Of a stretch of 64,000 nt of DNA, positions 9,254 to 24,515 are shown piece after piece. A program made the translations under genes and the position numbers. Source of the DNA: Nitrospirota bacterium (GTDB taxonomy: Bacteria > Nitrospirota > UBA9217); contig JAOUEV010000008.1 in NCBI GenBank assembly GCA_029858565.1, positions 2,003 through 66,002 of the forward strand, given 5' to 3'. A model generated the notes under the pieces. It had not been told where the DNA came from. It did no database searches and worked only from the letters and a program-made list of their open reading frames with translations. Every line of letters begins with the position of its first letter. The stretch's first letter is position 1.

Positions 9254-9295
9254 CAAAGCAAAAGGCCTGTCAGGAATGACAGGCCTTTTGCTTTG
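9254..9295. terminator. Perfect 19-bp hairpin, possible bidirectional intrinsic terminator
   Basis: CAAAGCAAAAGGCCTGTCA-ggaa-TGACAGGCCTTTTGCTTTG. Confidence 0.7.
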
Positions 9296-9586
9296 GAGGA
9301 CCGGTGCTGTCTTGCTCATCATTGCACCCGCGTCAGGGATCATCGAGTACTCTCAAGGTGCTTTCAGCAGAAACATGTCAAGTCGCAAGATCCGACCCTA
9401 TGAGGTCTGGGACCGATGAGGGATGGTGGGAGAGGAGGAGAGTTCTTCATGTGACAAGGGTACAGCAGAACCGACGTCAATAACTGCAATCAAGCCTGCC
9501 CCCGGTTCTCGCGGTCTCAGAATGCATATTTCTGATCATGGGCCTGCTTCTTCGACGCCGGAGGGGACGTAGTTGCACCCGTTGCG

Positions 9587-9874
9587 TCAGGCTGCCTTCC
9601 TCGTCACCACCTTATAGTCGATCCCGAGTTCTACCAGCATGTTGAAGAGCACATCAAAGGTGACCTTCGCCGTGCCCACACCGGACTCGATCTGCGCCAC
9701 CCGGGCCTGGCTGATCCCGAGCTTCTTTGCAAGAGCAGCCTGCGACAGGTCCTTGTCCTTCCGCGCCTTGACAATCAATTTGACCAGCCGCTGCTTCTCG
9801 CGGACCTCGGCGACATTTGCGCCCAGCGACTTAGCCAGTTCTTCAACGGTCACTTCCTTCCATGCCATGATCAA
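9587..9874 (-). CDS. XRE-family HTH antitoxin (HigA-like)
   Basis: LSQAALAKKLGISQARVAQIESG HTH; overlaps toxin stop by 4 bp. Confidence 0.85.
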   Translation of the reverse strand: MIMAWKEVTVEELAKSLGANVAEVREKQRLVKLIVKARKDKDLSQAALAKKLGISQARVAQIESGVGTAKVTFDVLFNMLVELGIDYKVVTRKAA

Positions 9875-10203
9875 ATCTCCTTCAGTCTCTTATGGATAAT
9901 ATCCAGCTCGCGCCGGGGAATGATCCGCGTCTTCTTCCGGAAGGCGTGGACCAGGTAGATGGCGTCGCCCTTCTTTAGATAGTAGATGACCCGGACCTGG
10001 CCGGCCTTGTCGCGGAACCTGAGCTCATGCAATCCGGGACGGATGCCTGCAAGATTCCGGCTCAGCGGCATCTCCAGCGCCCGGCCGCTCTCCAGCAGCA
10101 AAAGCGCATCGGCGACCTCAAACCGCGTCGCTTCCGGCAGGCCAAGCAGAAAGTCCTCTACCGGACTCCTGCCGCCGGACGTTTGATAATATCGTATCTT
10201 CAT
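9871..10203 (-). CDS. RelE/ParE-superfamily toxin (HigB/Gp49-like)
   Basis: GRSPVEDFL, GLHELR, RVIYY, LVHAFRKKT motifs; toxin-before-antitoxin order. Confidence 0.85.
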   Translation of the reverse strand: MKIRYYQTSGGRSPVEDFLLGLPEATRFEVADALLLLESGRALEMPLSRNLAGIRPGLHELRFRDKAGQVRVIYYLKKGDAIYLVHAFRKKTRIIPRRELDIIHKRLKEI

Positions 10204-10209
10204 CTGATT

Positions 10210-10243
10210 ATAAGCTATTGCTTATTATAAGGCAAACCTTATA
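10210..10243. promoter_or_regulatory. Two adjacent palindromic operators of the TA promoter
   Basis: ATAAGC-tatt-GCTTAT (10210-10225) and TATAAGG-caaa-CCTTATA (10226-10243) immediately upstream of the toxin ATG. Confidence 0.65.
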
Positions 10244-10321
10244 TTCGGCCGGTTTTGCCATGCTGGGGGTCTTTCTCCGGATATCTTCGCGTCTCAGGGT
10301 CCCCGCAGATTCATCTCGACC

Positions 10322-11683
10322 CTACCCCCGCGGCACATACACCGCATACCCTCTCGGCGGAGCGGAGAACTCACCCCTTCCGTCCCCCTGGGTCTTCAGT
10401 TCCTTCGGATCGCGTGCATCGCGGCCGTTCCATGCCACCGGGGCAAAGGTCCTGTTGTTCCACTGCGTCGTGACCCATGCCTTGTTCCAGGCATCACCCC
10501 GGTTGTTCAGCACAAAGACCAGCCCCTTTTGATACCCAAAACCGTTCCGCTGCATGATGTAGAGATCGTCGTCCGCGTGGAGAACGGTCGTTCCGCCGCC
10601 TGCGTGGTCCTCATGGGCCTTGACGAGCGCCGCGATGCCGGTCGGTTCTCCCGGCCTGCCCAGTCCCCAGGCGAAATAGTCCTGCCAGAACACGCAGGGA
10701 TAACCCTCATGGGTGAGGATGAAGGCGTAGGCGAGCAGTTTGTCGTTCGTGATCCCCGGGGTGTCTCCGCCGCGGAAGTCGTGGTTGTCCACGAAGGTCA
10801 CGGCCTCGAACGGCCGGTCCGTCATGAGCACGCCGCCCACGGTCAGCCGCCGCAGGCTGAAGCCGTAGGAATCGCACAGGTCCTTCAGACGGTAGCGCAG
10901 CGGAAAATCGAAAGCGCCAACTCGGTTCGTCGCCCAGGAGTTCACGTCGTCGAGCCAGCTGTCGATGAACGCGTCGCCTGCCCAGCATTCGCCCACGCCG
11001 AAGATGTCCACGGGTTTGCCCTGCCGCGTATAGGTCCGGTCGTGGATCGCCCGGACGATCCAGCCGCCGAAGCCCTTGACGAAGTCATAGCGGAAGCCGT
11101 CGAAGCCGATCTCCTCGATCATCCACTTGGCGTGGTTCAGGATGCCGGTGGAGACGCGGGGGTTGATGTGGCAGAGGTCGGGCATGTCGCAGAAAGCGTT
11201 CGTATCGATGGCGCGGTAGGGCGAAGGATTGAAGCAGGTCCAGTCGCGGGTGAAGAGCCCGCTCATGGGCGTGAAGCGCGTCCACCACATGCGCCGCGTG
11301 ATCGGGTTGTACTCTTCCCCGTCCGCTCCGTTGTTGTGGTTCAGGACCAGGTCCGCGTAGACCTTGAAGTCCTTTGCGTGCGCCGCGCTGATCAGGGCCT
11401 TGAGCTCTTCTTCCGAACCGTACCAGGTCCGCACCTCGTCCCTGCCGTCCACCTTCCTGATTGCCTTCTGCGGGTACTTGCCCAGGTCGTAGTAGTCGTA
11501 GACGTCGTACCCCATGGACATGCCGCCCACGTTCGCGGCCTTGGAAGCCGGTGGCAGCCAGAGCGCGGTAAAGCCCGCGGCCTTGAGGCCCGGAACCTCG
11601 GCGGCCACGTGGGTCCACCAGGCGTATTCCTTTCCTTCGATCCTCGGACAGTCCCAGTAAAAAGCCTGCATGATGACGCCCAT
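10322..11683 (-). CDS. Alpha-amylase, GH13 family (no signal peptide seen)
   Basis: ADLVLNH, DGFRYDFVKG (nucleophile D), VGECW (acid/base E), FVDNHD. Confidence 0.92.
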   Translation of the reverse strand: MGVIMQAFYWDCPRIEGKEYAWWTHVAAEVPGLKAAGFTALWLPPASKAANVGGMSMGYDVYDYYDLGKYPQKAIRKVDGRDEVRTWYGSEEELKALISAAHAKDFKVYADLVLNHNNGADGEEYNPITRRMWWTRFTPMSGLFTRDWTCFNPSPYRAIDTNAFCDMPDLCHINPRVSTGILNHAKWMIEEIGFDGFRYDFVKGFGGWIVRAIHDRTYTRQGKPVDIFGVGECWAGDAFIDSWLDDVNSWATNRVGAFDFPLRYRLKDLCDSYGFSLRRLTVGGVLMTDRPFEAVTFVDNHDFRGGDTPGITNDKLLAYAFILTHEGYPCVFWQDYFAWGLGRPGEPTGIAALVKAHEDHAGGGTTVLHADDDLYIMQRNGFGYQKGLVFVLNNRGDAWNKAWVTTQWNNRTFAPVAWNGRDARDPKELKTQGDGRGEFSAPPRGYAVYVPRG

Positions 11684-11742: not shown

Positions 11743-12183
11743 TCACATCCTCATCCTGGTCAGCATCGGAATGGCGACGGCCGCCACGATGCCCAGCAAC
11801 CCTATGATGATCCCGATCAGCGCCGTGATCCCCGTGAATTTCCAGAACGACTTCTGATGGCTGAATGCGGCCTCCAGGTCCGCGACGCCGTACCCTTCGA
11901 GAAAGCGGCCGATGGCGGATGAATACCGGTACAGATACAGAGCCGGAATGAAATAGAAAACCGAAATAACGATATAGAACAGCCCGAGGAACGCAGTCGG
12001 TGCGCCCTTCTGGGTCTGGAGCATGCGCGCAAACACCGTGACGCCGACCCCCAGCAGCACCATGAATCCCACGGCGATGAAACCCAGGACCGCCAAGAGC
12101 TTTGTCCACGGTTTGATCGAACGCATCGATTCCACCATACCCCCGGTTACCGCAACACCGTTCTCCGCTGCTTCGTTGTTCAT
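11743..12183 (-). CDS. DUF5362-like membrane protein
   Basis: KPWTKLLAV...QKSFWKFTG pattern with three TM segments. Confidence 0.7.
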   Translation of the reverse strand: MNNEAAENGVAVTGGMVESMRSIKPWTKLLAVLGFIAVGFMVLLGVGVTVFARMLQTQKGAPTAFLGLFYIVISVFYFIPALYLYRYSSAIGRFLEGYGVADLEAAFSHQKSFWKFTGITALIGIIIGLLGIVAAVAIPMLTRMRM

Positions 12184-12376
12184 GACAATGTCCCCCTTCG
12201 CGTCAGCAGGTCTATTCACTGATACTGATAAAAGCTTTCTGTCTTCCGATCACGATGCTCTTTCAAAACGAATCTAGTACAGATAAATACAAATTGCAAG
12301 AAAGAACTGTCTCTGGCCGGTCTTTTTGGTGAAGATATTTCTACTACACTTTCGGGCAGGTAGGGCGCGGTGAAGC

Positions 12377-12493
12377 GGACAGTACAGCGACAGGAGGCAA
12401 CAAGATGGGGACGACATATGTTCGACAGAAAAGCGACAGAGGGGCGACAGACGGACGATAAATGGACGACAGAAAGGCGACAGGGTGCGACAG
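12377..12493. repeat. Helically phased array of CGACAG (reverse complement CTGTCG) at 11-bp period
   Basis: CGACA(G)-type cores at 12412, 12423, 12434, 12445, 12456 (CGATA), 12467, 12478, 12488; outlying copies at 12377 (GGACAG) and 12388. Confidence 0.85.
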
Positions 12494-12528
12494 AGAAAAC
12501 TGCGTGAGACGAACGGCAAGGACGGCTT

Positions 12529-12605
12529 GATCCCCGATGGAATCATTCGGGGATGACGGGCTAAACCACTGCCCCCTCACCCCTGCCCTCTCCCCAGAGG
12601 GTAGA
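12529..12605. repeat. REP cluster; second REP hairpin is interrupted by the mobile element
   Basis: TCCCCGA..TCGGGGATGAC hairpin, then CCCCTCACCCCTGCCCTCTCCCCAGAGGGTAGA whose missing GGG is found at 24426-24428. Confidence 0.7.
12601..12605. other. Left copy of 5-bp target-site duplication GTAGA
   Basis: Identical 5-mer at 24421-24425; bases on either side differ; joining the flanks restores CCCTCTCCCC-AGA-GGGTAGAGGG. Confidence 0.8.
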
Positions 12606-12611
12606 TATAAC

Positions 12612-12655
12612 TGCGCGTTTAGTTTTCCATTTTTTTGCACTCAGTTTGCCATTTT
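12612..12655 (+). repeat. Two tandem 22-bp putative transposase-binding sites (Mu R1/R2-like)
   Basis: TGCGCGTTTAGTTTTCCATTTT and TTTGCACTCAGTTTGCCATTTT, 16/22 identical; the first starts 6 bp inside the terminus. Confidence 0.75.
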
Positions 12656-12722
12656 ATAACCCAGAAAGCTCATTTTTTGTATGCTTAACGCCATATGACA
12701 AGTGCTTTATTCAAACTGTAGA

Positions 12723-12956
12723 TCAGGCTTCTTTCTCAAGCCCTTTAACTACCCGTGCCCGATAGTTATTGTATACGGTCTGAAAATTATCGCTGTTTTC
12801 CGTAGATGCGTAGAGGCCCCGCAACTGGTCGAGTAGCAGACTCCTATCCACGCCTGGGTGTTCTGCAAGCATACAAACAATATCGGTTAAGAGTACACCG
12901 ATCGCAGCAGTGGAATCAGCACAGGCAGTAACCGCGCTTTGTGTGTCTTTTTCCAT
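12723..12956 (-). CDS. Small hypothetical protein, last gene of the element's main operon
   Basis: CAGGAGG RBS before ATG 12956; 77 aa. Confidence 0.65.
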   Translation of the reverse strand: MEKDTQSAVTACADSTAAIGVLLTDIVCMLAEHPGVDRSLLLDQLRGLYASTENSDNFQTVYNNYRARVVKGLEKEA

Positions 12957-13011
12957 TTGTGATCCTCCTGGGAACAGCCGACTTGTCACGGTCAATAACG
13001 TGAATTAATAA

Positions 13012-15024
13012 TTATTGTCCGATTCCGAATGCACTTCTAACCGCTGGGCTTGTGTTTGCGAGTTTCAGTAATACGGTGGCAATATATCGCTCACCATCGA
13101 ACTGATGCTTGCCCACCTGCGCGTCCAGCTGAACGCCGGACTGGTTAATAACGCTTATCGAAACGTTTGGCATGTTGCCTACGTCGCCCTTGTTGATTCT
13201 GTCGAGGGCGGCCACGCCCTTGCGCGACACCACGTATTCACCGGTCTGCAGGATAGCGGGACGCTCGTCGGACGATAGCCCTCCCACATGGAACCGGGGG
13301 ATATATCCTCCGCTGTGCATGATCAGCCCGCCGGAATGTTTAAAATAAGGTCCAATAACCGGCGGTTGCCCGTACCCGGATCCTCCTACATTTGCACCTG
13401 GATCACTTATAAGTGCGCCGCCGACAGCGGTTGTTCCCGTTTTATTTTCGGCATTTTTAATACCTGTAATAGCAATCACAGATTGCTGCGCAAGAATATT
13501 TGAAATCGCGCGCGCCACGGAAAGCAAGAAACTTTTAATATATTGCCAGAAGCTCTTAAGTTTACCCGTCATTGCGTCAAAGAAAAATTCAGAGAACGCC
13601 TGTTCCATGCCGCGCGCGGTTTCCTGGGCGATATACACGCCTTCCTGGAAGCGGCTTCGAAGGCTGTCATTATACCGCTTTAAACCTTCGTCAATACCCT
13701 CTTGAAACGTGCCGTCCAACTCCCGCAGCGCCAACCTCAGGTCGGAGATTTTTCTGATGGTGTCATCGATCTCTTTTTGCTTCGCGGCCCGCTGGTTAGG
13801 ATCGTTGATCGGCTTCAGGTTCGCCTGCTGCACGCTGAGCAGCCGTTCCTCGATCCGTAGCCGCTCGCGGGCCGCATCAAGATGGGAAATATCGCGGTTT
13901 TTCTCTGCTATATCGAGGTAGGCCATCTCGCGCATGATCTCCGCTTCTCGCGCTTTCATGGCAACTTCATATTCCAATTGGGATTGTGCTCCCGTACCCC
14001 TGCCGCCTCCTGATCCGCTGAACGATGGATCGGTGCCGGTTCCGCCGCCGGAGAGCGGAGATTCCGCTTTTCCGAAGGCCGCCTTGAAGTACGTTGCGCT
14101 CAGGTTCTTCAGCTTCTCGAAGTCCGCCTTGGTCTTGGCCAGCGTCTCGTCGGAAACGATGCCGACCTTGTTCAAGGCCGTCTGCGCCAGGGTAGCCAGA
14201 CCCATGATGCCGGCGATGCCTCCGCTCATGAGCCCCATGACAATATCCACGGTCCCGAGCGCGAAACTCTTGATGCCGCTGCCGAAGCTCCAGATCGCGC
14301 TGCCGACGGTTTCCTTCAGATCGTTCCACCAGGCCTTGAGCTTCTGCATCTTTTCGGCGTTGTTGCCCTGGACATCGCCGAACTTTTCCATCTGCTTGCC
14401 CGCGTTCTCCATGGCCAGGGCATAGAGGTCCACATCGGTGATGCCCATGGACATGGCCTCGGACAGGAGCTGCACCTGTTCCTTGGAAACAAGACCGTAC
14501 TTCAGCAGCGCCCGCGGCATCTTGTTTGCGATCGCGTCAGTGATCGTCTCGTATGCCGTGCCCACGTCCTCGCCCGTGACTCGCGCGGAGATCCTCGCGG
14601 CCTCCATGATCTTCGTGAGCTGGTCGCCGTTGAGCCCCTGCATCATGCCCTTCACGGCCTTCTGCATGATGTCCGAGTCGTCCACGGTCCCGGCGGCCGC
14701 GCGCTTCATGTTTTCCAGGATCTCGTCCGCGCTCTCTCCGGACGCCTCGGCCACCTGGCGGAAAGACGCCTCGGCCTGCTCGGCCTTGGCTCCCAGCTCC
14801 ATGTACTCCAGCGCCTTGCTGATCGCGACGCCTGCGGCGGCAGCCGCGGCGGTGATGGCGATCCAGTTCTCTTTCATGGACTTCATAAAGGAGCCGGTCT
14901 GCTTGTCGGCCTTCCCGGTCTCGTCGCCGATGCCCTTGATCTGCTTCCCCAACTGGTCAAGGGTCCCCTTGGCCATGTTGTAGGCTTCGATGACGAGCTG
15001 TATTTTCTGGCGGTCGTTCGACAT
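13012..15024 (-). CDS. Phage tail tape-measure protein
   Basis: Ala/Gly-rich helical 670-aa protein; typical TMP N-terminus (IQLVIEAYN..KGTLDQL), central hydrophobic stretch, C-terminal FHVGGLSSDERPAILQTGEYV motif. Confidence 0.85.
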   Translation of the reverse strand: MSNDRQKIQLVIEAYNMAKGTLDQLGKQIKGIGDETGKADKQTGSFMKSMKENWIAITAAAAAAGVAISKALEYMELGAKAEQAEASFRQVAEASGESADEILENMKRAAAGTVDDSDIMQKAVKGMMQGLNGDQLTKIMEAARISARVTGEDVGTAYETITDAIANKMPRALLKYGLVSKEQVQLLSEAMSMGITDVDLYALAMENAGKQMEKFGDVQGNNAEKMQKLKAWWNDLKETVGSAIWSFGSGIKSFALGTVDIVMGLMSGGIAGIMGLATLAQTALNKVGIVSDETLAKTKADFEKLKNLSATYFKAAFGKAESPLSGGGTGTDPSFSGSGGGRGTGAQSQLEYEVAMKAREAEIMREMAYLDIAEKNRDISHLDAARERLRIEERLLSVQQANLKPINDPNQRAAKQKEIDDTIRKISDLRLALRELDGTFQEGIDEGLKRYNDSLRSRFQEGVYIAQETARGMEQAFSEFFFDAMTGKLKSFWQYIKSFLLSVARAISNILAQQSVIAITGIKNAENKTGTTAVGGALISDPGANVGGSGYGQPPVIGPYFKHSGGLIMHSGGYIPRFHVGGLSSDERPAILQTGEYVVSRKGVAALDRINKGDVGNMPNVSISVINQSGVQLDAQVGKHQFDGERYIATVLLKLANTSPAVRSAFGIGQ

Positions 15025-15057
15025 GGGTGTACTCCTTTCAGATAGTTCTACGTATAA

Positions 15058-15498
15058 TTAAACTCGCGAAGATGATCTGCTTTTCTGAAGGGTATATTTG
15101 AGCACGCTGTGTTGATCATCTTCGTTCATTTCTATCAAAATCTGTCTCACTTTTTCAATTAACGCTGTACCTCGAAGCATGCCTGGCATAGCTGATGGAG
15201 TCTCTATATTGTTTCGTACAAAGACATTATAGATGCCTGTCGGAGTCATTCCGTATTTTTTTGAAAGCTTCTGCAGTGTAAATTTGTTGGTATGATAATC
15301 CGCAATGATTTTGTTATCGCGTTCCTTCCTGCGCACGACAGTCAGGCACTCCAGCGTTTTCGGGAAATACACCTGTTCACCACGGAGCTCTGATCCAAGC
15401 TTCACCGTTGCACCGAGGCCGATGATTTTAGCGATCATCTGGTATGTTGGGTGAAGCTCGTTCTCCCGGATGCTAATTTGCTTTTCATCCATCAGCAC
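15058..15498 (-). CDS. Mor/C-family transcription activator (Mu middle-operon regulator-like)
   Basis: IAKIIGLGATVKL..ELRGEQVYFPK dimerisation segment and RDNKIIADY..LQKLSKKYGMT HTH. Confidence 0.8.
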   Translation of the reverse strand: MLMDEKQISIRENELHPTYQMIAKIIGLGATVKLGSELRGEQVYFPKTLECLTVVRRKERDNKIIADYHTNKFTLQKLSKKYGMTPTGIYNVFVRNNIETPSAMPGMLRGTALIEKVRQILIEMNEDDQHSVLKYTLQKSRSSSRV

Positions 15499-15516
15499 TT
15501 TACCTCCACAGTTACT

Positions 15517-16302
15517 TTAGACCGCGCAGTATTCGACACAGACGGTTTCCCGATTTTCGGTTATCAATGTAGGCTCTCCCATGAGCTCCCACCGCAGTTT
15601 TCTAAGGGCAGTAGCTTCAATTCGGGCGACACTGCTTATTGAAAGCCCAGCTTTTACACCAACTTCTTCCGGCATAAGATCACACCAGTATCTAAGAATT
15701 ATTATCTTACGTTCCCTGTCGTTAAGCTCCAGCAACGCTCTGCGAATATTATGGTTGAATGCCGATTTCTCAGCACTGCACTTGGTTTCAGCAGTTCTGA
15801 ATGAATTCCCATTTCTTCGCTTATCGAATATTTGCGGTATTATTGAACTATCCCCATCCGAAACGAACATGTCTTGCCGAGTAGCCGCGTCTTCTTTGTC
15901 GCCCAGAAGCTCATCTAACGAATTATGTTTGTTCTTATGGTAATCTTTGAGGCAGTCAATTATCTGACGGCTAATTGCTGGTTTCGCATAGGCAATAAGC
16001 CGGATCCCTCTTTCTGGATCGAACAGTTTAGCTGCTCTCATTAAACCCTGGCAACCTTCGGCAACCATGTCCATAAATGGCAATCCTGGGCGCCAATACT
16101 TCCTGACGATGAAAATAACGAACTTGATATTTGACTCTACGAGAAGTTCAGCTGCCGCTTCATCTCCGGATTGAGCCCTGCGAGCGATCCTGCTTTCATC
16201 CTCTCGTGATAATACTGGTCTTTGTTTAAGGTCTTCCCGAAGCATCCTGAGTAATTCCCAGTCTCCACCGCCATAACCGGAATTCTGTTTTTCCTCTTTC
16301 AT
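15517..16302 (-). CDS. Element-encoded sigma-70 family RNA polymerase sigma factor
   Basis: Region 1.2 (LSREDESRIARR), region 2 (LVESNIKFV, EGCQGLMRAAKLFDPERG), region 4 HTH (LNDRERKIIILRY..VARIEATALRKLR). Confidence 0.88.
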   Translation of the reverse strand: MKEEKQNSGYGGGDWELLRMLREDLKQRPVLSREDESRIARRAQSGDEAAAELLVESNIKFVIFIVRKYWRPGLPFMDMVAEGCQGLMRAAKLFDPERGIRLIAYAKPAISRQIIDCLKDYHKNKHNSLDELLGDKEDAATRQDMFVSDGDSSIIPQIFDKRRNGNSFRTAETKCSAEKSAFNHNIRRALLELNDRERKIIILRYWCDLMPEEVGVKAGLSISSVARIEATALRKLRWELMGEPTLITENRETVCVEYCAV

Positions 16303-16350
16303 GCGACCTCCCCGAGTGGTAATATCAACCAAGGAAGGATATCCCGCTCC

Positions 16351-16389
16351 AAAAGCCACGCCCTCCTGCCCAGGACGCGCGTGGCTTTT
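16351..16389 (-). terminator. Hairpin with U-tract between the 94-aa gene and the sigma gene
   Basis: AAAAGCCACGC-17 nt-GCGTGGCTTTT. Confidence 0.55.
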
Positions 16390-16673
16390 TATTTTGTCGC
16401 TGCTACGGGGATCTCTTTAAGTCCGTACGATGTTTCACGAATCAATGTTTCCAGTTCCTCGCATTTGGCGTGGGTTGCTTTTTGCAACCGACCAAGAATC
16501 GAAAATACCATTGACCATTCAATATCGATTTTGCGTCCTTCCCCGGAAGACAATGCAGTTATTTCTCCGAGCTTGATCATCGTTTCTATTTCATATAAGT
16601 GGTTTGTAATATCATTGCGCAGATGATCGAGTTTAACGTATGCGTTCTCTTTCTGTTTTGAAAGCTGATTCAT
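16389..16673 (-). CDS. Hypothetical protein (94 aa)
   Basis: GGGGG RBS-like run before ATG; co-oriented in the element operon. Confidence 0.6.
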   Translation of the reverse strand: MNQLSKQKENAYVKLDHLRNDITNHLYEIETMIKLGEITALSSGEGRKIDIEWSMVFSILGRLQKATHAKCEELETLIRETSYGLKEIPVAATK

Positions 16674-16753
16674 TGAAGCCCCCCTTGGTTAAGTTATAGC
16701 CACGCTTCCACCTGACAGCGTGGCTATTGATTTTATTATTTGCTGAACTCGTT

Positions 16754-17875
16754 CTACAGGTTGATCCCGATTGTTTGATACTTTGCTTTTATATCGTCAA
16801 CGGCTTTCTGGATCACAGCTCTGTCCTTGTACGGTCCAGAGAGAGAGCACACTGCTGCTATTTGACCATAGTTATGCTTATCCTCTAAACCTTCAAATGC
16901 TTTGAGGTTGAAGGTCGGTATTGCAAACCTGTCAGCATCGCCCCCCGTCCGCCGAATCGCAAAACCTTCAGCCCTGACTTCCTTCGACAGTCGAGCTGGA
17001 GAACCCATGATCTCATCCAAGGCCGTCAGCTCTTTGAACTTGTCGATGAGTTGAATAGAAAGCTTGATGTATTCCTGACCGACAAGTTCGGCCTGGCCCA
17101 TCAAAAACTCGTTGATGATTTCCTTCCGGCTGGACCGGAGCAGAGTCAGCTCATTCTCGGCTGCATCGAGTTTTCGCTGGAGGCCCGCGATGATTTGCTT
17201 CGCGTTGCCGGCAACCTTGTTGAATTCTTCAAGCGCTGCTTCCCGCGCCGCAATCTGCTCATCAAGCGCTTTGAGGTCTTTTCCCGTCGCAGTGCCCAGA
17301 GAGATGGCTGCAAGGATATCTTCTCTCTCTTGCAGCAGATCGTCTGCGGACTCGGGCACGGCCTGACGGGCCTTCTCGATCGTGCTTGTCTGATCCGAAA
17401 TGAGAGCCTGAAGTTCTGCGACGGTTCTTTCTGCCGCTGCAACATCCTCTTGATACTGAATAAGATCCTCGATGCCGAGTGAATGACCATAATTCGTCAG
17501 TTCTTTTTCGGCGTTCACGAGATCCTGATGTGTGCTCTGCGCGTGCTGCCGGGCATGTGCGGCCACTTCTTTGGCATCCGCAGCAGCCTTCTGAAGTTTG
17601 TCGAATTCATCTTTTTCCCAAGGGGTCATGCGCTCTACATCTTCTGCGTGGTGCCTCCCATTAAGGCGATTCACGCCTTCAATGGTGCTTTTAAATGAGT
17701 AGACCTGTCCTGTCGCCCGTGCTGCAATGTCCTCTTTGTCGTCGGCGACCTTGATAGCAGCAAGACATTTTTCTCTGAGCAACTGCGCACGACGACGAAG
17801 GTCTTCTCTCTTTGCCACCCGTTCCCTGTACGACACCTTCCCTGGGGCATCCTGTACGTCCGCTTTCTTAGCCAT
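16754..17875 (-). CDS. Coiled-coil protein of unknown function (373 aa)
   Basis: AGGAGG RBS; long Ala/Glu/Lys/Gln heptad-like runs. Confidence 0.8.
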   Translation of the reverse strand: MAKKADVQDAPGKVSYRERVAKREDLRRRAQLLREKCLAAIKVADDKEDIAARATGQVYSFKSTIEGVNRLNGRHHAEDVERMTPWEKDEFDKLQKAAADAKEVAAHARQHAQSTHQDLVNAEKELTNYGHSLGIEDLIQYQEDVAAAERTVAELQALISDQTSTIEKARQAVPESADDLLQEREDILAAISLGTATGKDLKALDEQIAAREAALEEFNKVAGNAKQIIAGLQRKLDAAENELTLLRSSRKEIINEFLMGQAELVGQEYIKLSIQLIDKFKELTALDEIMGSPARLSKEVRAEGFAIRRTGGDADRFAIPTFNLKAFEGLEDKHNYGQIAAVCSLSGPYKDRAVIQKAVDDIKAKYQTIGINL

Positions 17876-17968
17876 GTGCTTTCCTCCTATCGTTAATTTG
17901 ATGGTTCGTAAATTCTCACGAATGCTTTAGTGAGGGATTTCCTCGATGTCATCCGTGGAGTTATTTAT

Positions 17969-18178
17969 TTATCGCTTCGGCGATACCGATGCGATGTTTC
18001 GTACAATTTCATCAAGTTCGCTCTGTTCTTCTTTCGACACTTGTGCAGCAAATTCATTGGTATGTTCGCCTTCTGACAGATCAATAAAAAACACAGAGCC
18101 AGGGGACATGGGGACAAAGCGACATCCCGATATCTGGCGAAGTTTTTGTTGAAATTTATGATCGTCTATGCGTATCAT
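17969..18178 (-). CDS. Small hypothetical protein
   Basis: GGAG RBS before ATG 18178; 69 aa. Confidence 0.55.
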   Translation of the reverse strand: MIRIDDHKFQQKLRQISGCRFVPMSPGSVFFIDLSEGEHTNEFAAQVSKEEQSELDEIVRNIASVSPKR

Positions 18179-18230
18179 ATTTTCTCCACGAGGCTGCTGA
18201 TTATTCCCTAACGAGTTTTCTATCGAGCCT

Positions 18231-18599
18231 TTAGAGGGCAAATATATGTTTTGCCGCTCTCGTCAGTGCCAAAAGACGATCCCCAACAGTCGTATCCCTA
18301 CCGAACAGGATGAGATCGCGACGTTTGTCCTCCGGCACCATTTTCGAAGCACCTATTTTCCGAGCTTCCGAGTAGTAGAGCCGATGGCACGAACCGGATC
18401 CAAAACCACAGAAATCCTTCTGCCTCCCGGAAAGAGGCTTTCCACAGCGGCGGCAATGCCTCCCATTTGCCGCTTTATTAGCTGTGCGCAGCTCGCTGGG
18501 GGCCTCAGGGGGAGCAATATGGGGCATGGGGCTACCCTGGCACCCAAAACGCACATTTTCCTCCGTCGTATTCACCCCAGCACTGTCTAAACGTTGCAT
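18231..18599 (-). CDS. Hypothetical protein with putative Zn-finger
   Basis: GAGG RBS; CRRC-GKPL-x5-FC-x5-C motif common in phage early proteins. Confidence 0.6.
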   Translation of the reverse strand: MQRLDSAGVNTTEENVRFGCQGSPMPHIAPPEAPSELRTANKAANGRHCRRCGKPLSGRQKDFCGFGSGSCHRLYYSEARKIGASKMVPEDKRRDLILFGRDTTVGDRLLALTRAAKHIFAL

Positions 18600-18648
18600 T
18601 CCATGTTCCTCTCTACCTATCCGTCTGTAGCCCATCAACAACAGCCGT

Positions 18649-19170
18649 TTAAACGGTATTCGAAACCGGCTTACCCGTGTCCGGCGCGTCCGGTTTTCTT
18701 TCGCGTGCGCCGTCCTTTTTCCGCCTGACCATATTGTTCAATGTATGGATCACCTTCCGGGTTGTGACCGTATCCAGGAACCGAAGGTCTGAAACCTTGA
18801 AATGCCGATCTAAAAACGTGCGCAGGGCCTTTTCTCTTTTTTTATGATCCCTGATATCAACAGCATCACGCCAAAGGGCTTCGATCTTTCGGAGTTGAGA
18901 AGGCTGCGCCATATCTGCCCGATGACCAAGATTTTCAAACCGTTCTTTGCCCTCGAACTTATTCCACACGCCGCGCTCGATCGCGCTGTCTTCGAGTGCC
19001 GTAATGAGCGAGTTGGCTTGTTCGGATGTAAGCTGTTTTGAAGATGCCGCTTCAAAATTGATTGCGAGGGTACCCCGATACTCTTTTTCCGTCATCTTGA
19101 GGGCTGTTTTCAGCGTGTGAATTTTTTTGATCTGCCCTACGTCAATCATCTTATTTGCCGTGTTCAACAT
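18649..19170 (-). CDS. GemA / Mu gp16 family (DUF1018) protein
   Basis: QIKKIHTLKTALKM..YR..L..ASSKQLT and SQLRKIEALW..LRTFL..LRFL motifs. Confidence 0.82.
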   Translation of the reverse strand: MLNTANKMIDVGQIKKIHTLKTALKMTEKEYRGTLAINFEAASSKQLTSEQANSLITALEDSAIERGVWNKFEGKERFENLGHRADMAQPSQLRKIEALWRDAVDIRDHKKREKALRTFLDRHFKVSDLRFLDTVTTRKVIHTLNNMVRRKKDGARERKPDAPDTGKPVSNTV

Positions 19171-19501
19171 TGCCTGCTCCTTTCTCGTTCTTCTGAAACC
19201 AGTAACCTACTGTTCTGGGACATAGTCCAAGTCGCTTCGCTATTTTTTCGGCCGAAATCTTCGACTTTGTTCTGAGCCGCAATGCCAGCCGGTATGCATT
19301 AAGGTGAGGGGCAAGAACTCTAACAGTGTCTCCAGATGGTGTTTCCTGGAGCCAGTAACGAACTGTTCTTGGATTCATACCGATGCGTCGCGCTATTTCA
19401 ATTCCTGTTAACGCTTCACATTTCCTCAATCGCAAGGCTTCGAGATATTTGCTCTGGTGAGATAAATGAGCACGTATGTTACGCAGCCTGTCCTTTCTCA
19501 T
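19151..19501 (-). CDS. Tandem-HTH DNA-binding protein in the MuB position
   Basis: Two similar HTHs: GIEIARRIGMNPRTVRYW and AEKIAKRLGLCPRTVGYW; ATG 4 bp after the transposase stop. Confidence 0.7.
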   Translation of the reverse strand: MRKDRLRNIRAHLSHQSKYLEALRLRKCEALTGIEIARRIGMNPRTVRYWLQETPSGDTVRVLAPHLNAYRLALRLRTKSKISAEKIAKRLGLCPRTVGYWFQKNEKGAGNVEHGK

Positions 19502-19505
19502 GCGA

Positions 19506-22112
19506 TCAGTCCTCTTCAGAGAAAAAATATCCCGAGCCACGCTTAGTTAATACATAGCGTTCCGCTCCGACCTTTCGGAGTTTGATTCGCAGTCTTGTTA
19601 CGTGAACATCTATTGCCCGCAGCTCCATGGATAGGCCGTTTCGTGAGATGGCTTCCTTGATCGCGGCTCGTCCAAAAACTTTGCCTCGGTTTTCCATGAG
19701 AAGGCGAAGGAGTCTGAACTCCATGGGGAGGAGATCAACAATCTTGCCTTCAGCCACAACTCGCTCACGGTCCAGATCCATTAGTAGCGGGCCGGCGCTG
19801 ACTATTGATTTTTCAATAGCCGCGTTATATTCTTTCTTTTTCTCCAGGTAATCGGCCATGTCTCTTTGATATTGTGCTTCCGCATCTGCTTCATCACTCT
19901 CAAAAATGATAAGCGGTTTTTCCGGCCGAATCGGTCGTGAATCCTCCAGATATGAAATTTCCTGTAAAGTACTGTAGCCATCGGTGCCGGTTAGCTGCAT
20001 CTCGCGATCACGTCGAACGACTTCATCCATGGCAGTTTTTGCGAGACGAAGCACTTTGACTTTTTTCTTGTCGGTTGTCGTGCAACCGCGAGCAAGATTC
20101 ACTGCTACTATTCCTGCGGCAAGATGTTCTACGGTTTCAGATGGCGCAACGGCTCGATTGTCCTTCAAATATGATTTCGCGATTTTCCTTGTGCGGTGTT
20201 TATGGGCCAATGCTGCCTTGAGTTCCGCTCTTTCTATGTCCGTTTTAGCGAGCGCCTGGACTGCTCCCACCAAGTTGGCTTTCCCCAGGTACTCATCCGT
20301 TGTGGCATCAAAGACCCAAGCAGTCTGGTAGGCTTGCACATCCCGGCGTAAATAGACTTTGGTCCCTGTGAGGGCATACATGAATTCGCCAAAGTAAGTG
20401 ACCTGGAGTTCACTATCTCGCACGCCATTTCTGCCGATCGTGACTTCCTTACTGGTTCTCTGACAAAATAGTTTTAATGCATCGGCTCCGACCTTTCGCA
20501 TCTCCGATCGTTCAGCATTCCATACTTCATCCGGACATCTGCCCTGGAGCACCTTTCCATTTGACGGCATTTTATTAGCGACGGTCATGATATAGACATC
20601 CATCAACTTTAGATATTCGTCGTAGGAGAGAATGCGGCCGCTTTTAATTTCTCCGTCAAGGCTATCCGGTCTTTCGGTGACATTGCCGCCACGGTAGCCT
20701 GGCATGTGTTTGCTGAACCATTCCTTGTTGCGCAGAAAATCTCGTTCAATCGGTTTGGTCTGAGCATTGTATGGTAGTGCAAAATGAGGAGTGACGCCGA
20801 GAAGCGAAAGCATACTGGTCGTTTTCTTCTCGTCAACCGTCACCCGGCCGCGCTTCCGGCCTCCGGCAAAATCGCGCGATTTATAATCACGGCCATTGTC
20901 GATATAAAGCTCTTCCGGCAATCCGTTTTCTTTTACTGTGTAATAGAAGGATTGAAATATATGGTCGCTATTCGGCGGCTCAGGATGATGCAGCCAGCCA
21001 AGCCACTTGGAAGTTTTATAATCGCGCCATGCCGTGATCCATGGAAAACATGCCTTGCCGTTCGGCAGCATTACCGCGACATCGACTTGAGCGTGATCCC
21101 CTACAATGACTTGGCCGGGTTTTATCTGGCTGTAATCACGGTCCACATGCGATGCATATTTTCTATTCCAGGCCTCCGGACCAAAGCGAGCCAAAAAGAT
21201 TGAGCTTTTCGGTATTTCACGCTCGACGCGGCGAAGAAATGCGGACGGTGAGGGGAATCCTTCAAGTTGAAGCTGCGGATTGAGAGTCCGTGCATATCCG
21301 AGGGTACGAGTCCAACACGATTTAACGGAGGGCGCGCCTTCCTTCAGATATGCATTTTTGAAGTACTTATAATGGTCATCCTGCACTTTGCTGTTTCCGG
21401 CAGAATGACCGTATTTTGCGAGCAGTCCGGCAATGCCTTGCTCAGCATATTTATTTCGTGCATCGAGAACCGCGTCATAGGATGTTTTCAGGTCAGGCTG
21501 AGTGCCGTTCCACTCAGCTACAAATTGCCTGAGGCTTGCACCCTTGAGTCCAGCAGAGGCGCGAATGATTTGAAGATATTTATCAGCCTTCTGCCGAGCC
21601 CAGCCTGGCGCTGCCGCGTAGAGTTCACTCTCTATCTCTTCGTCGGTCATGGGCCGCAGCGCTGTGCCGATGTTTACGACTTCGCCTGTTGCGGTGTCGA
21701 TTAACTCGCCGCTTGCGATTTCTATATTCTTATTGGCATTCTCTGCGGTGATTGATAAAGAGTGCGCCGGTACAGAAGCAGATGGCACCTGACAAGGAGG
21801 AGGCTGCATCTGTACCGGCGCGAGTTGATCAGGGGTGCGGTCGCGAACCCGCTCCTGATCTATAGAAGATGCAACAGATGACCACAAAGGAGGTTTGTTT
21901 TCGCCATCTGTCACATCCATGCTGCCAGGTTGTAAGAAGAGTGCCTTGATGTCTTCGGCAAGACCATCAGTCTCAAATTCTTCGGCAACCTTATGGTTAA
22001 CGATTCTGGTACCGCACGACTGCCAACCTTCCTTTAGCTTGCGCTTTCGGATGGCATGCCAGGTGACGCCTTTTCGTTCGGCTATTTCTTTCAGTGTCGC
22101 CTTCATGCTCAT
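19506..22112 (-). CDS. MuA-like DDE transposase with C-terminal OmpR/PhoB-type winged-helix domain
   Basis: Mu-type N-terminal HTH (TLKEIAERKG..KEGW), catalytic D (GDHAQVD), D (IDNGRDY), E (KPIERDF), Mu-transposase C-terminal region, then EFRLLRLLMENRGKVF..IDVHVTRLR..TKRGSGY. Confidence 0.92.
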   Translation of the reverse strand: MSMKATLKEIAERKGVTWHAIRKRKLKEGWQSCGTRIVNHKVAEEFETDGLAEDIKALFLQPGSMDVTDGENKPPLWSSVASSIDQERVRDRTPDQLAPVQMQPPPCQVPSASVPAHSLSITAENANKNIEIASGELIDTATGEVVNIGTALRPMTDEEIESELYAAAPGWARQKADKYLQIIRASAGLKGASLRQFVAEWNGTQPDLKTSYDAVLDARNKYAEQGIAGLLAKYGHSAGNSKVQDDHYKYFKNAYLKEGAPSVKSCWTRTLGYARTLNPQLQLEGFPSPSAFLRRVEREIPKSSIFLARFGPEAWNRKYASHVDRDYSQIKPGQVIVGDHAQVDVAVMLPNGKACFPWITAWRDYKTSKWLGWLHHPEPPNSDHIFQSFYYTVKENGLPEELYIDNGRDYKSRDFAGGRKRGRVTVDEKKTTSMLSLLGVTPHFALPYNAQTKPIERDFLRNKEWFSKHMPGYRGGNVTERPDSLDGEIKSGRILSYDEYLKLMDVYIMTVANKMPSNGKVLQGRCPDEVWNAERSEMRKVGADALKLFCQRTSKEVTIGRNGVRDSELQVTYFGEFMYALTGTKVYLRRDVQAYQTAWVFDATTDEYLGKANLVGAVQALAKTDIERAELKAALAHKHRTRKIAKSYLKDNRAVAPSETVEHLAAGIVAVNLARGCTTTDKKKVKVLRLAKTAMDEVVRRDREMQLTGTDGYSTLQEISYLEDSRPIRPEKPLIIFESDEADAEAQYQRDMADYLEKKKEYNAAIEKSIVSAGPLLMDLDRERVVAEGKIVDLLPMEFRLLRLLMENRGKVFGRAAIKEAISRNGLSMELRAIDVHVTRLRIKLRKVGAERYVLTKRGSGYFFSEED

Positions 22113-22177
22113 CCTGTGTTTTAATAGTCGTTGCGTACTCGCTCAAAATACGATACAATCGTGTTCATTGCGGGCAA

Positions 22178-22426
22178 CTATGCCTTCTGTTGATTGCCAT
22201 CAGGCCACAGCTCGGAGATCCTCATCCGAAGTGCGGCCGCAATGGAGCGGCGTATTCGCTGCCCGCGCCTGCGCCCGTGAATAACAAAGGACACATATGC
22301 TTTTGTGACATGTTCTCTTTCTGCGATTTGGAGGCCAGTAACTCCCCTTAACACCATTATTGATTTTATGTTCCTCGCCCCCAGGACGCCGGAACGTGTG
22401 CTTTTTTTAAGTAGCTTTTTCGACAT
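22178..22426 (-). CDS. Ner/Cro-like HTH regulator
   Basis: 82 aa, IAAALRMRISELWP C-terminus resembles Mu Ner; lies between repressor and transposase. Confidence 0.75.
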   Translation of the reverse strand: MSKKLLKKSTRSGVLGARNIKSIMVLRGVTGLQIAEREHVTKAYVSFVIHGRRRGQRIRRSIAAALRMRISELWPDGNQQKA

Positions 22427-22477
22427 GTGTTTTTCCACCCTTGCTCCGTATGAATCGCTCCTGATGGCAATGTAGTA

Positions 22478-22548
22478 GTTAACCGATATACTATGGAATC
22501 TAACAACAAGCGGCTTGGGGTAAGCCACATTGTGTTAACCTGTATATC
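22478..22548. promoter_or_regulatory. Candidate operators in the divergent ner/repressor switch
   Basis: Direct repeat GTTAACC..TATA at 22478 and 22534. Confidence 0.4.
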
Positions 22549-22578
22549 ATGTTGTAGGTATGAATATAGTCACAAAAT

Positions 22579-23043
22579 ATGACAATGTCAACAACAAAAT
22601 TCATATTAACTGACATTATTAAACGCATCAAACAGCGCGAATTAATCCGCAGTGACGTTAAGGTCGCTGAATTACTAGGATTAGAGCGCACTGCATTTGC
22701 TGAGAGAAAGCGCAGGAATAGTATTCCGTACAAAGAATTAGTCATATATTGTGAACGAACCGGAACCAATATGCATTATCTTCTTACCGGAGAAGGTTTG
22801 GATATTAATGCTGCGCTTAGAACAGTTCCGTTAGAACTGCGAAATAAACAGCTGTACTACATTGGAAGATGGGTGGATGTGTTTTGGGAAAAAGCCACAG
22901 AAGAAGAGCGGGCATGGCTTTATGTGGAACTCCAAAGGGTATTCCCTGAATTTAAAAAATGGATACAGGAAGAAGAGGCAGAACTTGAAAGGTCTTTCAA
23001 TGAATTTTCGAACACTGAAAAACCGGAAGGTGGCGATCAATGA
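22579..23043 (+). CDS. Phage CI-type repressor (HTH)
   Basis: SDVKVAELLGL..RNSIPY..MHYLLTGEG, typical of the phage CI-repressor HTH family; divergent from ner. Confidence 0.82.
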   Translation: MTMSTTKFILTDIIKRIKQRELIRSDVKVAELLGLERTAFAERKRRNSIPYKELVIYCERTGTNMHYLLTGEGLDINAALRTVPLELRNKQLYYIGRWVDVFWEKATEEERAWLYVELQRVFPEFKKWIQEEEAELERSFNEFSNTEKPEGGDQ

Positions 23044-23666
23044 AGATAGTGATCTTCTGCATCATCACGACAATGTTTTTTTCGGGATGCGCGTCGAAGA
23101 GAACTTTCACTCAAGATGAATGGACCAGGATCACCACTCGGGAATATAGTGGTAGGTCAGCCACGGAAGTTTTTGATGCAATCGAAAAGGTTCTTCGCCT
23201 TGCCGATGAATCTGATGTGAAAATATACCGGTGGCCGGATCGCCTTATAGCAACGAGGTCATATCTTATCTACGCTGTGCTCGCAGCAACGAACGGACTA
23301 TATACATTCGACATTCATACAGTGCCAGGAGAATCAGGCACAAAAGTCGTTGCTATTATTACGCTCACCGCAGGAACAATAGCAGGAGCGCCGACAGCCT
23401 ACAATCCAACGATTATCACGACCCCTTCAGCGGGCGGCATGGTTATGGATAATCCGGAAACCTATGATCTGTTCTTCTCCCGAGTAAAGTATTTCCTCAA
23501 CGGGGGAGTCTGGGTAACCTGTGAGCGTGCCACAGAAATGTACCGAGATAGCCCATCCGGTGCACTCGATGGTTTATGTTTAATGAGTGATGATGACCTT
23601 CCGGAAGAAATGCGGCAGTCTACCGAAGGAAACAACTCCTGGCGATCTCGCCGCGCGCGTCGTTGA
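23040..23666 (+). CDS. Lipoprotein cargo, unknown function
   Basis: Signal peptide with lipobox FSG-C; overlaps the repressor stop by 4 bp. Confidence 0.75.
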   Translation: MKIVIFCIITTMFFSGCASKRTFTQDEWTRITTREYSGRSATEVFDAIEKVLRLADESDVKIYRWPDRLIATRSYLIYAVLAATNGLYTFDIHTVPGESGTKVVAIITLTAGTIAGAPTAYNPTIITTPSAGGMVMDNPETYDLFFSRVKYFLNGGVWVTCERATEMYRDSPSGALDGLCLMSDDDLPEEMRQSTEGNNSWRSRRARR

Positions 23667-23692
23667 TGTTTTAGTATTTAAAGGAGACATTC

Positions 23693-24007
23693 ATGGAACT
23701 GACAAAGCCAAGAGCGCAGGAGAAAAAGGTAAGAGATAAGATCATCGCAGCGCTACGAGAATATAGACCACAGGATGACATAGCTTTCTCAAAATTCACA
23801 AACGATAGAATCCCTGATGAGTTCTACCATAAAGAAATAACGAAAGCAGGGATTGAACAGGGATTAGAGTGTCTTCGTCTAATCAATAATATGAGCGGTC
23901 TCTCAGCAGGAGACTTTGATCTGCTCACGCTTTTGGAACACTACATTTTAAATCTTGATTCCCGCGATGCAATAAACAAGGTTCTCAATGCAAGGCGTGG
24001 ACGCTGA
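23693..24007 (+). CDS. Hypothetical cargo protein (104 aa)
   Basis: AAGGAG RBS; co-oriented with repressor and lipoprotein. Confidence 0.7.
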   Translation: MELTKPRAQEKKVRDKIIAALREYRPQDDIAFSKFTNDRIPDEFYHKEITKAGIEQGLECLRLINNMSGLSAGDFDLLTLLEHYILNLDSRDAINKVLNARRGR

Positions 24008-24114
24008 TTCTTTTTGGAACTGTGTACCTGGATCCCGACTGCTCATTACGCTTACATTCAGTGATGATCGTAGCGCCGCCTGCTCTCCCAGCCGATACCG
24101 TCCATATTCCTTGC

Positions 24115-24163
24115 AGGTTACATAGGTCACATAGGTTACAATGGGGCTATGTAACCAGTTACA
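24115..24163. repeat. Cluster of GTTACA/TGTAAC motifs
   Basis: AGGTTACAT-AGGTCACAT-AGGTTACAA (3 x 9 bp) then palindrome TGTAAC-CA-GTTACA. Confidence 0.8.
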
Positions 24164-24256
24164 AAGGTGAGTGCCGGAACAAGCGCGCTTAAATATTAAA
24201 AAGCCTTGCGTTAAACGATATTTAAACGGTCATCAAAATTTATCGCGCGATTTGAG

Positions 24257-24414
24257 AAAGTTGAAGACTGCCCGCGCAATAATGTAAAAAACGTGTACTT
24301 CCGGAAAAAAATGGCAAACTGATCCCGCCGCGTTTTTTTCTCGATTCCATCCTTAATATCAATACGTTATAAGCACACCTCCCTTTGTAACCAATAAAGA
24401 GAATTACCTGAAAA
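24257..24414 (-). repeat. Three putative transposase-binding sites (Mu L1/L2/L3-like), inverted relative to the left-end sites
   Basis: Reverse complement of 24308-24329 shares TCAGTTTGCCATTTT (15/15) with the second left site; 24257-24278 is 16/22 to the first left site; 24393-24414 is 12/22 to the second left site at the same offset from the terminus. Confidence 0.7.
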
Positions 24415-24420
24415 AGCATA

Positions 24421-24425
24421 GTAGA
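24421..24425. other. Right copy of target-site duplication GTAGA
   Basis: Matches 12601-12605 and is followed by the GGG completing the REP stem. Confidence 0.8.
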
Positions 24426-24446
24426 GGGCAGAAAATTTATCGTTGT

Positions 24447-24463
24447 TGTAATCTTCCTGTAAC
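24447..24463 (+). promoter_or_regulatory. Pho-box-like direct repeat in the pstS promoter
   Basis: TGTAAT (24447) and TGTAAC (24458) at 11-bp spacing about 55 bp upstream of the pstS ATG. Confidence 0.6.
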
Positions 24464-24515
24464 ATTCAGCGGTTATAACATTTCCATGATAAACTCATCA
24501 AGGAGGCATATACAT

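Follow-up and report, generated by a model that had tools for sequence, protein, structure and literature searches.

A Mu-type transposable element with a lone tape-measure gene and a PhoB-like transposase domain as a candidate phage satellite

The stretch of DNA analyzed here (hereafter, the window) comprises 64,000 nucleotides of contig JAOUEV010000008.1 from a Nitrospirota bacterium and carries an 11,815-bp Mu-like element with two unusual properties: the gene for a tape-measure protein (TMP) appears to be its only virion gene, and its transposase ends in a domain that resembles the DNA-binding part of the response regulator PhoB. A first-pass annotation had suggested that this element is a transposable phage satellite, an interpretation that is partly supported by the present analysis. 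The underlying premise, that some satellites supply a TMP of their own, has published precedents from 2025-26 in the PLEs of Vibrio cholerae (PMC12987554) and in EPIPs (PMC12822802), and the TMP-carrying satellite is an idea already known; the Mu-type backbone and the targeting to Pho boxes are the new parts. Coordinates of the features are collected in Table 1.

The limits of the element are set by the homology of its ends to those of related elements on four other contigs (designated L005, L050, L051, and L052), which stops exactly at positions 12606 and 24420, next to the two copies of a perfect 5-bp duplication. The 5'-TG...CA-3' termini of the Mu type are absent, and in L050 the TG that precedes the terminal TATGC belongs to the flanking GATTG duplication. 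The architecture of the ends is that of Mu, with the L1 site near the left terminus, L2 and L3 approximately 100 and 150 bp inward, respectively, and a right end with two adjacent sites. The left-end sites were read from an alignment of the left ends of the window element, L050, L051, and L052, and the paired right-end repeats are also found at the right ends of L005 and L050. Termini at the inner repeats (12613 and 24328) were considered and rejected, as the alignment of the four left ends put the left terminus ∼90 bp further out. The DDE transposase of the MuA family, the multiple end sites, the 5-bp duplication, and the divergent repressor and ner genes, together with GemA and Mor, place the element among the Mu-type transposable elements. 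Its GC content is 0.44-0.52 over most of its length and 0.62 at 14-15 kb, within the TMP gene, the flanks being at 0.55-0.62.

All 15 open reading frames (ORFs) inside the element were compared with Pfam, PHROGs, NCBIfam, and/or PADLOC models and searched by tblastn with phage head and tail markers. These searches recognized no capsid, portal, terminase, tube, baseplate, or lysis gene among them, and RNA family and tRNA searches produced no matches. The claim of the first-pass annotation that a full-length, 670-aa TMP is the only structural gene between the two ends is thereby confirmed, and the Mor gene does lie directly upstream of it, as had been noted (the gap is 33 nt).

Direct family matches of the TMP are weak. 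The protein scores 23.9 bits against Pfam Tape_meas_lam_C (cut-off, 23), has no match in PHROGs and no significant one in NCBIfam, finds nothing by tblastn in 50,697 GenBank phages, and in sequence and profile searches of the PDB has no relative, the output consisting of insignificant matches or coiled-coil noise. It is nevertheless called a TMP because its homologs fill the TMP slot of complete phage tail modules. A search of 5.8 billion proteins returned approximately 24 full-length homologs with 41-51% identity, and those encoded on long contigs (L001, L003, L009, L010, L053, and L054) are parts of complete Mu-like siphovirus modules with the gene order Mu-type protease, capsid, Gp36, terminator, tube, chaperone, TMP, gpM/L/K/J-like genes, fiber, and Dam. 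A scan of IMG/VR added ∼79 TMP loci, with tail genes flanking the TMP in nearly all of them, and a scan of genome contigs with the TMP as the single query returned two distant tail modules and nothing else. The window protein retains all 62 invariant columns in an alignment of 18 family members, both phage borne and from small elements, and has two hydrophobic segments, near residues 54 and 255 to 280. Judging by these comparisons, its identity as an intact tape-measure protein is confirmed.

The complete relatives show two further peculiarities. A gene with a cold-shock domain is found within the structural module in all six of them (L001, 5215-5418; L003, 6015-6212; L009, 9773-9982; L010, 3525-3725; L053, 5950-6147; L054, 6126-6326), and in two an Acb2/Tad1-hairpin gene, of a family of anti-defense nucleotide sponges, adjoins the terminase gene (L003, 239-448; L053, 1244-1453).

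The first-pass annotation proposed looking for further elements of 10-14 kb that share this gene set but have target duplications of their own, and such elements do exist. The same reduced layout recurs in four other contigs (L005, L050, L051, and the metagenome contig L012), always with the TMP; L050, at 13.5 kb (13,463 bp, with a 667-aa TMP), is flanked by GATTG, and the 11.8-kb window element by GTAGA. In L005, which encodes a TMP homolog (P0009) with 47% identity, the order is repressor, fused MuA, helix-turn-helix (HTH) protein, GemA, RadC, sigma factor, Mor, three small ORFs, and TMP, and in L012 RadC, the sigma factor, Mor, and two small ORFs precede the TMP. The last ORF of L051 is the N terminus of the TMP, and the L052 contig ends early. 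Seven transposases with 60-72% identity share the C-terminal fusion, and backbone proteins are 29-72% identical between members. The surroundings of the TMP vary: there is a small downstream ORF alone in the window, a gpM stump and a fiber gene in L005, and tail-completion and terminator-like genes in L050. A decoration-like gene and/or pieces of a head protease/scaffold gene occur in L005, L050, L051, and L012. Among these minor assembly genes of the sister elements, the decoration-like protein, the C-terminal half of the protease/scaffold gene, the tail-completion and terminator-like proteins, and the fiber gene are intact ORFs. The TMP is the only virion gene that is common to all members. 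The copies differ in their 5-bp duplications and insertion points and include both orientations. The reduced form itself is mobile and has inserted independently in different genomes. Reduced Mu-type transposable elements of about 12-13.5 kb form a small and rare lineage, to which the window element belongs.

Two loci of other kinds came to light in the same searches. A different small island, L008 (4956-13200), has several tyrosine recombinases, toxin-antitoxin genes, and a lone TMP (P0017; 43% identity) that is preceded by an ORF of the 130-aa family discussed below and followed by a gene resembling a fiber N terminus; no tube or capsid gene was found there. The compact Mu-like contig L124 (IMG/VR UViG_3300001567_000192, 81-10867) encodes, in sequence, MuB, GemA, and a sigma factor, then a 729-aa protein that ends with a capsid domain, and after it Mor, a chaperone, and a TMP of 875 aa; with this unusual gene order, it may be another type of reduced element.

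The most unusual and least expected feature of the element, one that the first-pass annotation missed, is the combination of a PhoB-type domain on the transposase with landing by the Pho boxes of pstS. Residues ∼765 to 868 of the transposase (∼105 residues; window 19506-19826, minus strand) correspond to an OmpR/PhoB winged helix (Pfam Trans_reg_C, 61.8 bits), the best NCBIfam match of this fused tail is PhoB itself (74 bits), and the recognition helix reads RAIDVHVTRLR, compared with RTVDVHIRRLR in the host PhoB. The domain is found in all four elements whose transposase is visible, and full-length matches to the fused C terminus are confined to one 50%-identity cluster among 1.84 billion representatives. 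In the window, the host phoB-phoR genes lie at 1.3-3.9 kb and pstSCAB-phoU at 24.5-29.3 kb. Paired TGTAAY boxes in 11-bp register upstream of pstS are also present in L005 (13815-13860) and L050 (20633-20680), and in each of the three insertions that are visible the element sits upstream of the boxes, by 26 bp in the window, about 25 bp in L005, and 4 bp in L050. The orientation in the window is opposite to that in L005 and L050. Because the duplications, positions, and orientation differ, these three pstS-side insertions are best seen as independent, targeted events.

Clusters of TGTAAC motifs equivalent to that inside the left end of the window element occur in L005 (150-215) and L050 (7420-7460), some of them palindromic and some arranged as direct repeats, and a GGTTACA motif is conserved in the spacer between L1 and L2 (window 24386). 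These left-end motifs are candidate sites that the fused domain, the host PhoB, or the repressor could recognize. From the insertion sites and the TGTAAC clusters, we infer that the fused domain may tether the transpososome to PhoB-type sites, replacing target capture by MuB; the internal sites could, alternatively, serve in regulation of the element by the host PhoB. On the other side of the element, a host intergenic region (12378-12494) contains an array of ∼10 tandem 11-bp units, each with TGTCG on the minus strand (similar to the Pho-box half-site CTGTCAT of E. coli). This array lies upstream of a gene for a DUF5362 membrane protein (11743-12219, minus strand), at a distance of 105-230 bp from the insertion point, and may be a large PhoB-binding array.

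The remaining genes of the element are listed in Table 1. The repressor, lipoprotein, and 104-aa ORF are on the plus strand and run toward the left end, all other genes being on the minus strand. The transposase matches phrog_310 with 271 bits. The sigma factor, which adjoins Mor in the small elements, has homologs in L005 (7772-8479), L012 (1567-2430), and L124. The 373-aa coiled-coil protein is modeled by AlphaFold as long helices with a low-confidence C terminus; it was considered as a scaffold and rejected, showing no profile similarity to the head protease/scaffold. Likewise, the double-HTH protein was rejected as a small terminase, having no similarity to phage TerS.

Table 1. Features of the element and of its insertion site (window coordinates)
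Feature	Position	Strand	Remarks
Whole Mu-like element	12606..24420	-	11,815 bp; termini on the element strand, 5'-TATGC...GTTATA-3'
Target-site duplication, copy 1	12601..12605		GTAGA; identical 5-mer abuts both termini
Right end	12606..12660	-	Two adjacent transposase-site repeats AAAATGG[A/C]AAACTG, 22-nt spacing
Small ORF downstream of TMP	12723..12995	-	77-90 aa; no Pfam/PHROG/PADLOC match; no homolog in sister elements
TMP ORF	13012..15024	-	670 aa; ATG start; AAGGAG ribosome-binding site
Mor-family transcription activator	15058..15498	-	Pfam Mor, 37.6 bits; phrog_532/836, late transcriptional activator
Sigma-70-family sigma factor	15517..16359	-	Pfam Sigma70_r2, r4; phrog_351, 132 bits
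Second Mor/C-like activator	16389..16673	-	94 aa; hhalign 98.7% probability against Mor family; homologs in L005, L050, L012
Coiled-coil protein	16754..17875	-	373 aa; two relatives, one in L051 (32% identity) and one among 5.8 billion proteins
ORF	17969..18241	-	90 aa; no matches
Cys-rich (CxxC...C) protein	18231..18641	-	136 aa; small-element homologs in L050, L052, L005, L012
GemA	18649..19170	-	Pfam GemA, 68.8 bits
Double-HTH protein	19151..19540	-	In the usual MuB slot; Pfam HTH_23 (two); kept in L005, L050, L051, L052
MuA-type DDE transposase	19506..22112	-	868 aa; C-terminal PhoB-like winged helix; Pfam DDE_2, HTH_Tnp_Mu_2, Mu-transpos_C, Trans_reg_C
Ner-like small repressor	22178..22528	-	phrog_1468
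Early promoter candidate	22563..22591	-	TTGACA-17-TATATT, 11/12 match; between divergent repressor and ner-like genes, as in Mu
CI-type repressor	22579..23043	+	Pfam Phage_CI_repr; L051 homolog 64% identical
Lipoprotein	23040..23666	+	Lipobox FSGC; co-oriented with repressor; no family match; AlphaFold pLDDT 51 (unusable)
ORF	23693..24007	+	104 aa; no family match
Four TGTAAC motifs inside left end	24117..24163		6/13 window TGTAAC copies fall in 24117-24463 (∼350 bp)
Left end	24250..24420	-	L3 24256-24271; L2 24308-24322; diverged L1 24394-24410; Mu-like spacing
Target-site duplication, copy 2	24421..24425		GTAGA; perfect 5-bp match to copy 1
Host Pho-type boxes	24447..24464	+	TGTAAT-N5-TGTAAC, 11-bp register; 26 bp from insertion point; ∼50 bp upstream of pstS

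Two other regions of the window deserve mention. A dip in GC content (0.43-0.52) at 35000-37600, with two ORFs that have no Pfam match (35957-36646 and 36822-37568, both on the minus strand), may be another foreign insert. A Gp49-like (DUF891, HigB/RelE-type) toxin gene (9871-10203, minus strand) and a small ORF directly downstream on the same strand (together, 9587-10203) are probably a toxin-antitoxin pair.

The complete phage with the closest TMP (L001/L055, on one 152-kb contig) encodes an S24 repressor, an ordinary 738-aa MuA, MuB, Dam, and GemA and, within 12 kb downstream of MuA, no sigma factor. MuB adjoins all four of the ordinary MuA genes (L055 to L058) and none of the four fused ones; it is absent from the window, L005, L050, L051, and L052. 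The end motif of the small elements was not found in the complete-phage loci. As far as the sequences go, the small-element backbone, with its fused MuA, no MuB, and an end motif of its own, is distinct from the complete phages sampled.

The TMPs behave differently from this backbone. Those of the small elements form no clade and interleave on the tree with those of complete phages: the C-terminal part of the L050 TMP is 79% identical to that of the complete phage L010, the N-terminal part of the window TMP is closest to that of the phage L054 (65%), and the C-terminal part of the L005 TMP is closest to that of L053 (57%). The backbone being a single lineage and the TMP a mosaic with phage TMPs, the TMP has evidently been swapped with complete phages, which implies contact with such phages.

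Taken together, these properties are best read as those of a possible transposable phage satellite whose own TMP would go into the tails of a helper, as in the Vibrio PLEs, a reading in which our confidence is evenly balanced between acceptance and doubt. The element carries no particle-building gene set, has integration, replication, and immunity functions of its own, and recurs as a conserved small element, as a satellite should. The only candidate in the window for redirecting helper assembly or packaging is the TMP, the decoration-like and scaffold-half genes being found in sister elements alone. More tentatively, the lineage may represent an undescribed class of satellites, a Mu-type transposon that uses a PhoB domain instead of MuB to home to Pho-box promoters and that rides in the particles of complete Mu-like siphoviruses with its own TMP; this fuller proposal is possible but rather less than probable.

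Under the satellite reading, the element would replicate by transposition when it is induced or when a related complete phage infects the cell. The activators and sigma factor that it encodes would express the TMP and, by analogy with P4, might also switch on the late genes of the helper. The element would then be packaged into helper capsids, with headful packaging by the helper carrying the element along with host DNA, by analogy with laboratory mini-Mu, and its TMP would be placed in helper-built tails, giving chimeric tails such as those shown for the Vibrio PLEs. The likely benefit would be a tail, or DNA-entry device, that tolerates TMP-directed blocks such as that imposed by Tab, a prophage protein that blocks rival Mu-like Pseudomonas siphophages via the TMP C terminus (PMC10884400). 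The PhoB-like domain, acting as the target selector instead of MuB, would provide a safe site, with pstS and its boxes left intact.

A number of observations weigh against the satellite reading. No helper phage is detectable in the 64-kb window by tblastn with phage markers, and the window element shows no identifiable pac site, small terminase, or capsid-size factor. Headful packaging of a 12-kb Mu-type element would take in ∼25 kb of host DNA if the capsid were not reduced in size. No tail chaperone is recognizable in the window element, which also has no member of the 130-aa ORF family located before the TMP in L005, L050, L012, L051, and L008; neither this family nor the 94-aa one nor the other small ORFs show profile similarity to a phage chaperone. 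The suggestion that a TMP swap would change the tail length did not survive, as the TMPs of the small elements (642-670 aa) are about as long as those of complete phages (628-721 aa), and tail-length remodeling was accordingly rejected. The element family is known from metagenome contigs alone. In L005, the TMP is directly followed by a stump of gpM, 36 codons long, that runs into right-end sequence, the signature of a deletion. The NG86 dN/dS values of TMP pairs, 0.18-0.34 (0.19 for the small elements L050 and L012 and 0.26 for two complete phages), are rough because dS, at 1.2-2.0, is near saturation. Finally, because the TMPs of the small elements interleave with those of phages, recent gene conversion, with functional phages as the donors, could account in part for the intactness of the TMP, in place of selection inside the element.

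The two last points bear on one rival, a decaying prophage, i.e., a defective remnant of a complete Mu-like siphovirus whose TMP has no role and has stayed intact through recency or through gene conversion from co-resident phages. The first-pass annotation had named two findings that would refute the satellite reading, complete prophages of ∼35-40 kb as close relatives with deletion scars around the TMP or a dN/dS near 1. The former was borne out, in that complete Mu-like siphoviruses, on contigs of 37-43 kb, carry the closest TMP relatives and L005 has its gpM scar; the latter was not, the ratios being well below 1, and the TMP is under purifying selection. Because the closest TMP relatives are in complete phages and L005 retains the gpM stump, the lineage is taken to have arisen from complete phages by reduction. 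Also in keeping with decay are the head protease gene fragments in L050, L051, and L012, the interleaved TMP tree, and the duplicated right end of L005, where the inner copy (11938-12100) is degenerate and a Collar-domain fiber gene lies between it and the outer right end (13742-13815). This arrangement suggests a history of deletion or nested insertion. Despite its origin by reduction, however, the reduced form is conserved, mobile, and constrained. A full-length TMP is kept in five diverged elements that differ in their deletion end points, with a dN/dS of ∼0.2 that extends to the comparison of the small elements L050 and L012; the regulators and the transposase are all intact, and the target duplications are perfect; the insertions in different genomes are independent; and the backbone is unlike that of the complete phages sampled. 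We therefore regard simple decay as unlikely.

Another rival is a defense element, in which the TMP would be expressed when a related phage infects (e.g., switched on by the Mor/C activators of the invader) and would poison or misdirect the tail assembly of that phage and so protect the population, with no need for transfer in particles. Among Mu-like siphophages and for PLE11, the TMP is known to be fought over, through Tab and Rta (PMC10884400, PMC12987554), that of the small elements is so similar to phage TMPs (45-65%, up to 79% in L050) that it could compete with them for partners, and the Mor-type activators that have been kept would be open to cross-activation by a related phage. However, PADLOC finds no known defense family in the element, a full-length TMP with all the family-invariant residues resembles a functional component more than a decoy, and defense alone leaves the spread of the reduced element between genomes unexplained, so that this explanation, too, seems improbable.

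A transposition machinery, ends, and target selector that are all complete, along with the absence of any packaging gene, would also suit an autonomous targeted transposon of Mu origin that would spread by transformation, conjugative carriers, or vesicles rather than in virions and would put its TMP-like protein, with the two hydrophobic segments, to a membrane-associated, nonvirion use. We know of no precedent for a nonvirion function of a TMP, and the retention of the late-gene regulatory set (Mor, the Mor/C-like activator, and the sigma factor), the exchange of TMP segments with complete phages, and the presence of other virion-assembly pieces in sister elements make this the sort of explanation to which we would assign little weight.

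If the satellite reading is correct, phage satellites would extend to transposable phages, and the hijacking of tails by a satellite TMP, which so far has been shown experimentally only in Vibrio PLEs (PMC12987554), would have arisen independently in a siphovirus system of uncultured bacteria. A Mu-family transposase that carries the output domain of a response regulator and inserts by Pho boxes would be a natural example of programmable, tethered target choice. The fused transposase also bears on the question of how Mu-type elements without MuB choose their targets, which can be tested directly in vitro.

Comparison with known systems shows what is shared and what is new. The V. cholerae PLEs (PLE11, PLE1, and PLE4), satellites of the phage ICP1, encode a TMP, a chaperone, and a hub, and their TMP is selectively built into helper-made tails; such chimeric tails let PLE11 wield an anti-TMP weapon without harming itself, making the TMP the focus of an arms race at the level of assembly (PMC12987554). 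The element described here, known from its genes alone, resembles them in lacking most virion genes and encoding its own TMP. However, the PLEs have integrases, a lytic myovirus helper, and a tail chaperone and baseplate hub, whereas this is a Mu-type transposon with siphovirus relatives in which a module of the PLE type (a TMP with its own tail assembly chaperone and hub) is not recognizable. The EPIPs, satellites of a Mycolicibacterium prophage described in a preprint, likewise carry a TMP and depend on their helper (PMC12822802). They differ from the window element in having a serine integrase, a small terminase, head-tail connectors, scaffold/capsid genes, and longer tails, none of which are seen in the window element, whose TMP is phage sized. 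All satellite families that we are aware of, or that the cited literature describes, use integrases.

Among the systems built on Mu, laboratory mini-Mu (Mud) elements, consisting of the Mu ends and transposase in ∼10-17 kb, transpose alone, need a helper Mu for heads, tails, and lysis, and take along flanking host DNA when packaged by the headful. In contrast to these engineered constructs, which have no virion gene, the present elements occur naturally, as a recurrent lineage that has a TMP of its own, additional regulators, and another target selector. P4, the satellite of P2, is likewise small, has immunity and replication functions of its own, and has activators that cross-talk with the late promoters of the helper, but it relies on an integrase, a primase, and cos packaging and remodels the capsid (through Sid and Psu) rather than the tail. 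The Mu-like siphophages of the D3112/DMS3/JBD26 type and the complete metagenomic relatives identified in this analysis (L001/L055, L003, L009, L010, L053, and L054) share with the small elements the TMP family, segments of which appear to have been exchanged between the two groups, and the early region with repressor, MuA, GemA, and Mor. These complete relatives, on contigs of ∼37-43 kb, differ in having full head, tail, and lysis modules, in lacking the small-element end motif, and, in the one whose early region is seen, in having an ordinary MuA followed by MuB. With respect to targeting, the closest parallel is TnsD of Tn7, a sequence-specific DNA-binding module that steers insertion to a fixed, harmless position (attTn7) by a conserved gene. 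In the element described here, the output domain of a PhoB-type response regulator is instead fused to the transposase itself, and the presumed target is an array of promoter boxes that is used in both orientations.

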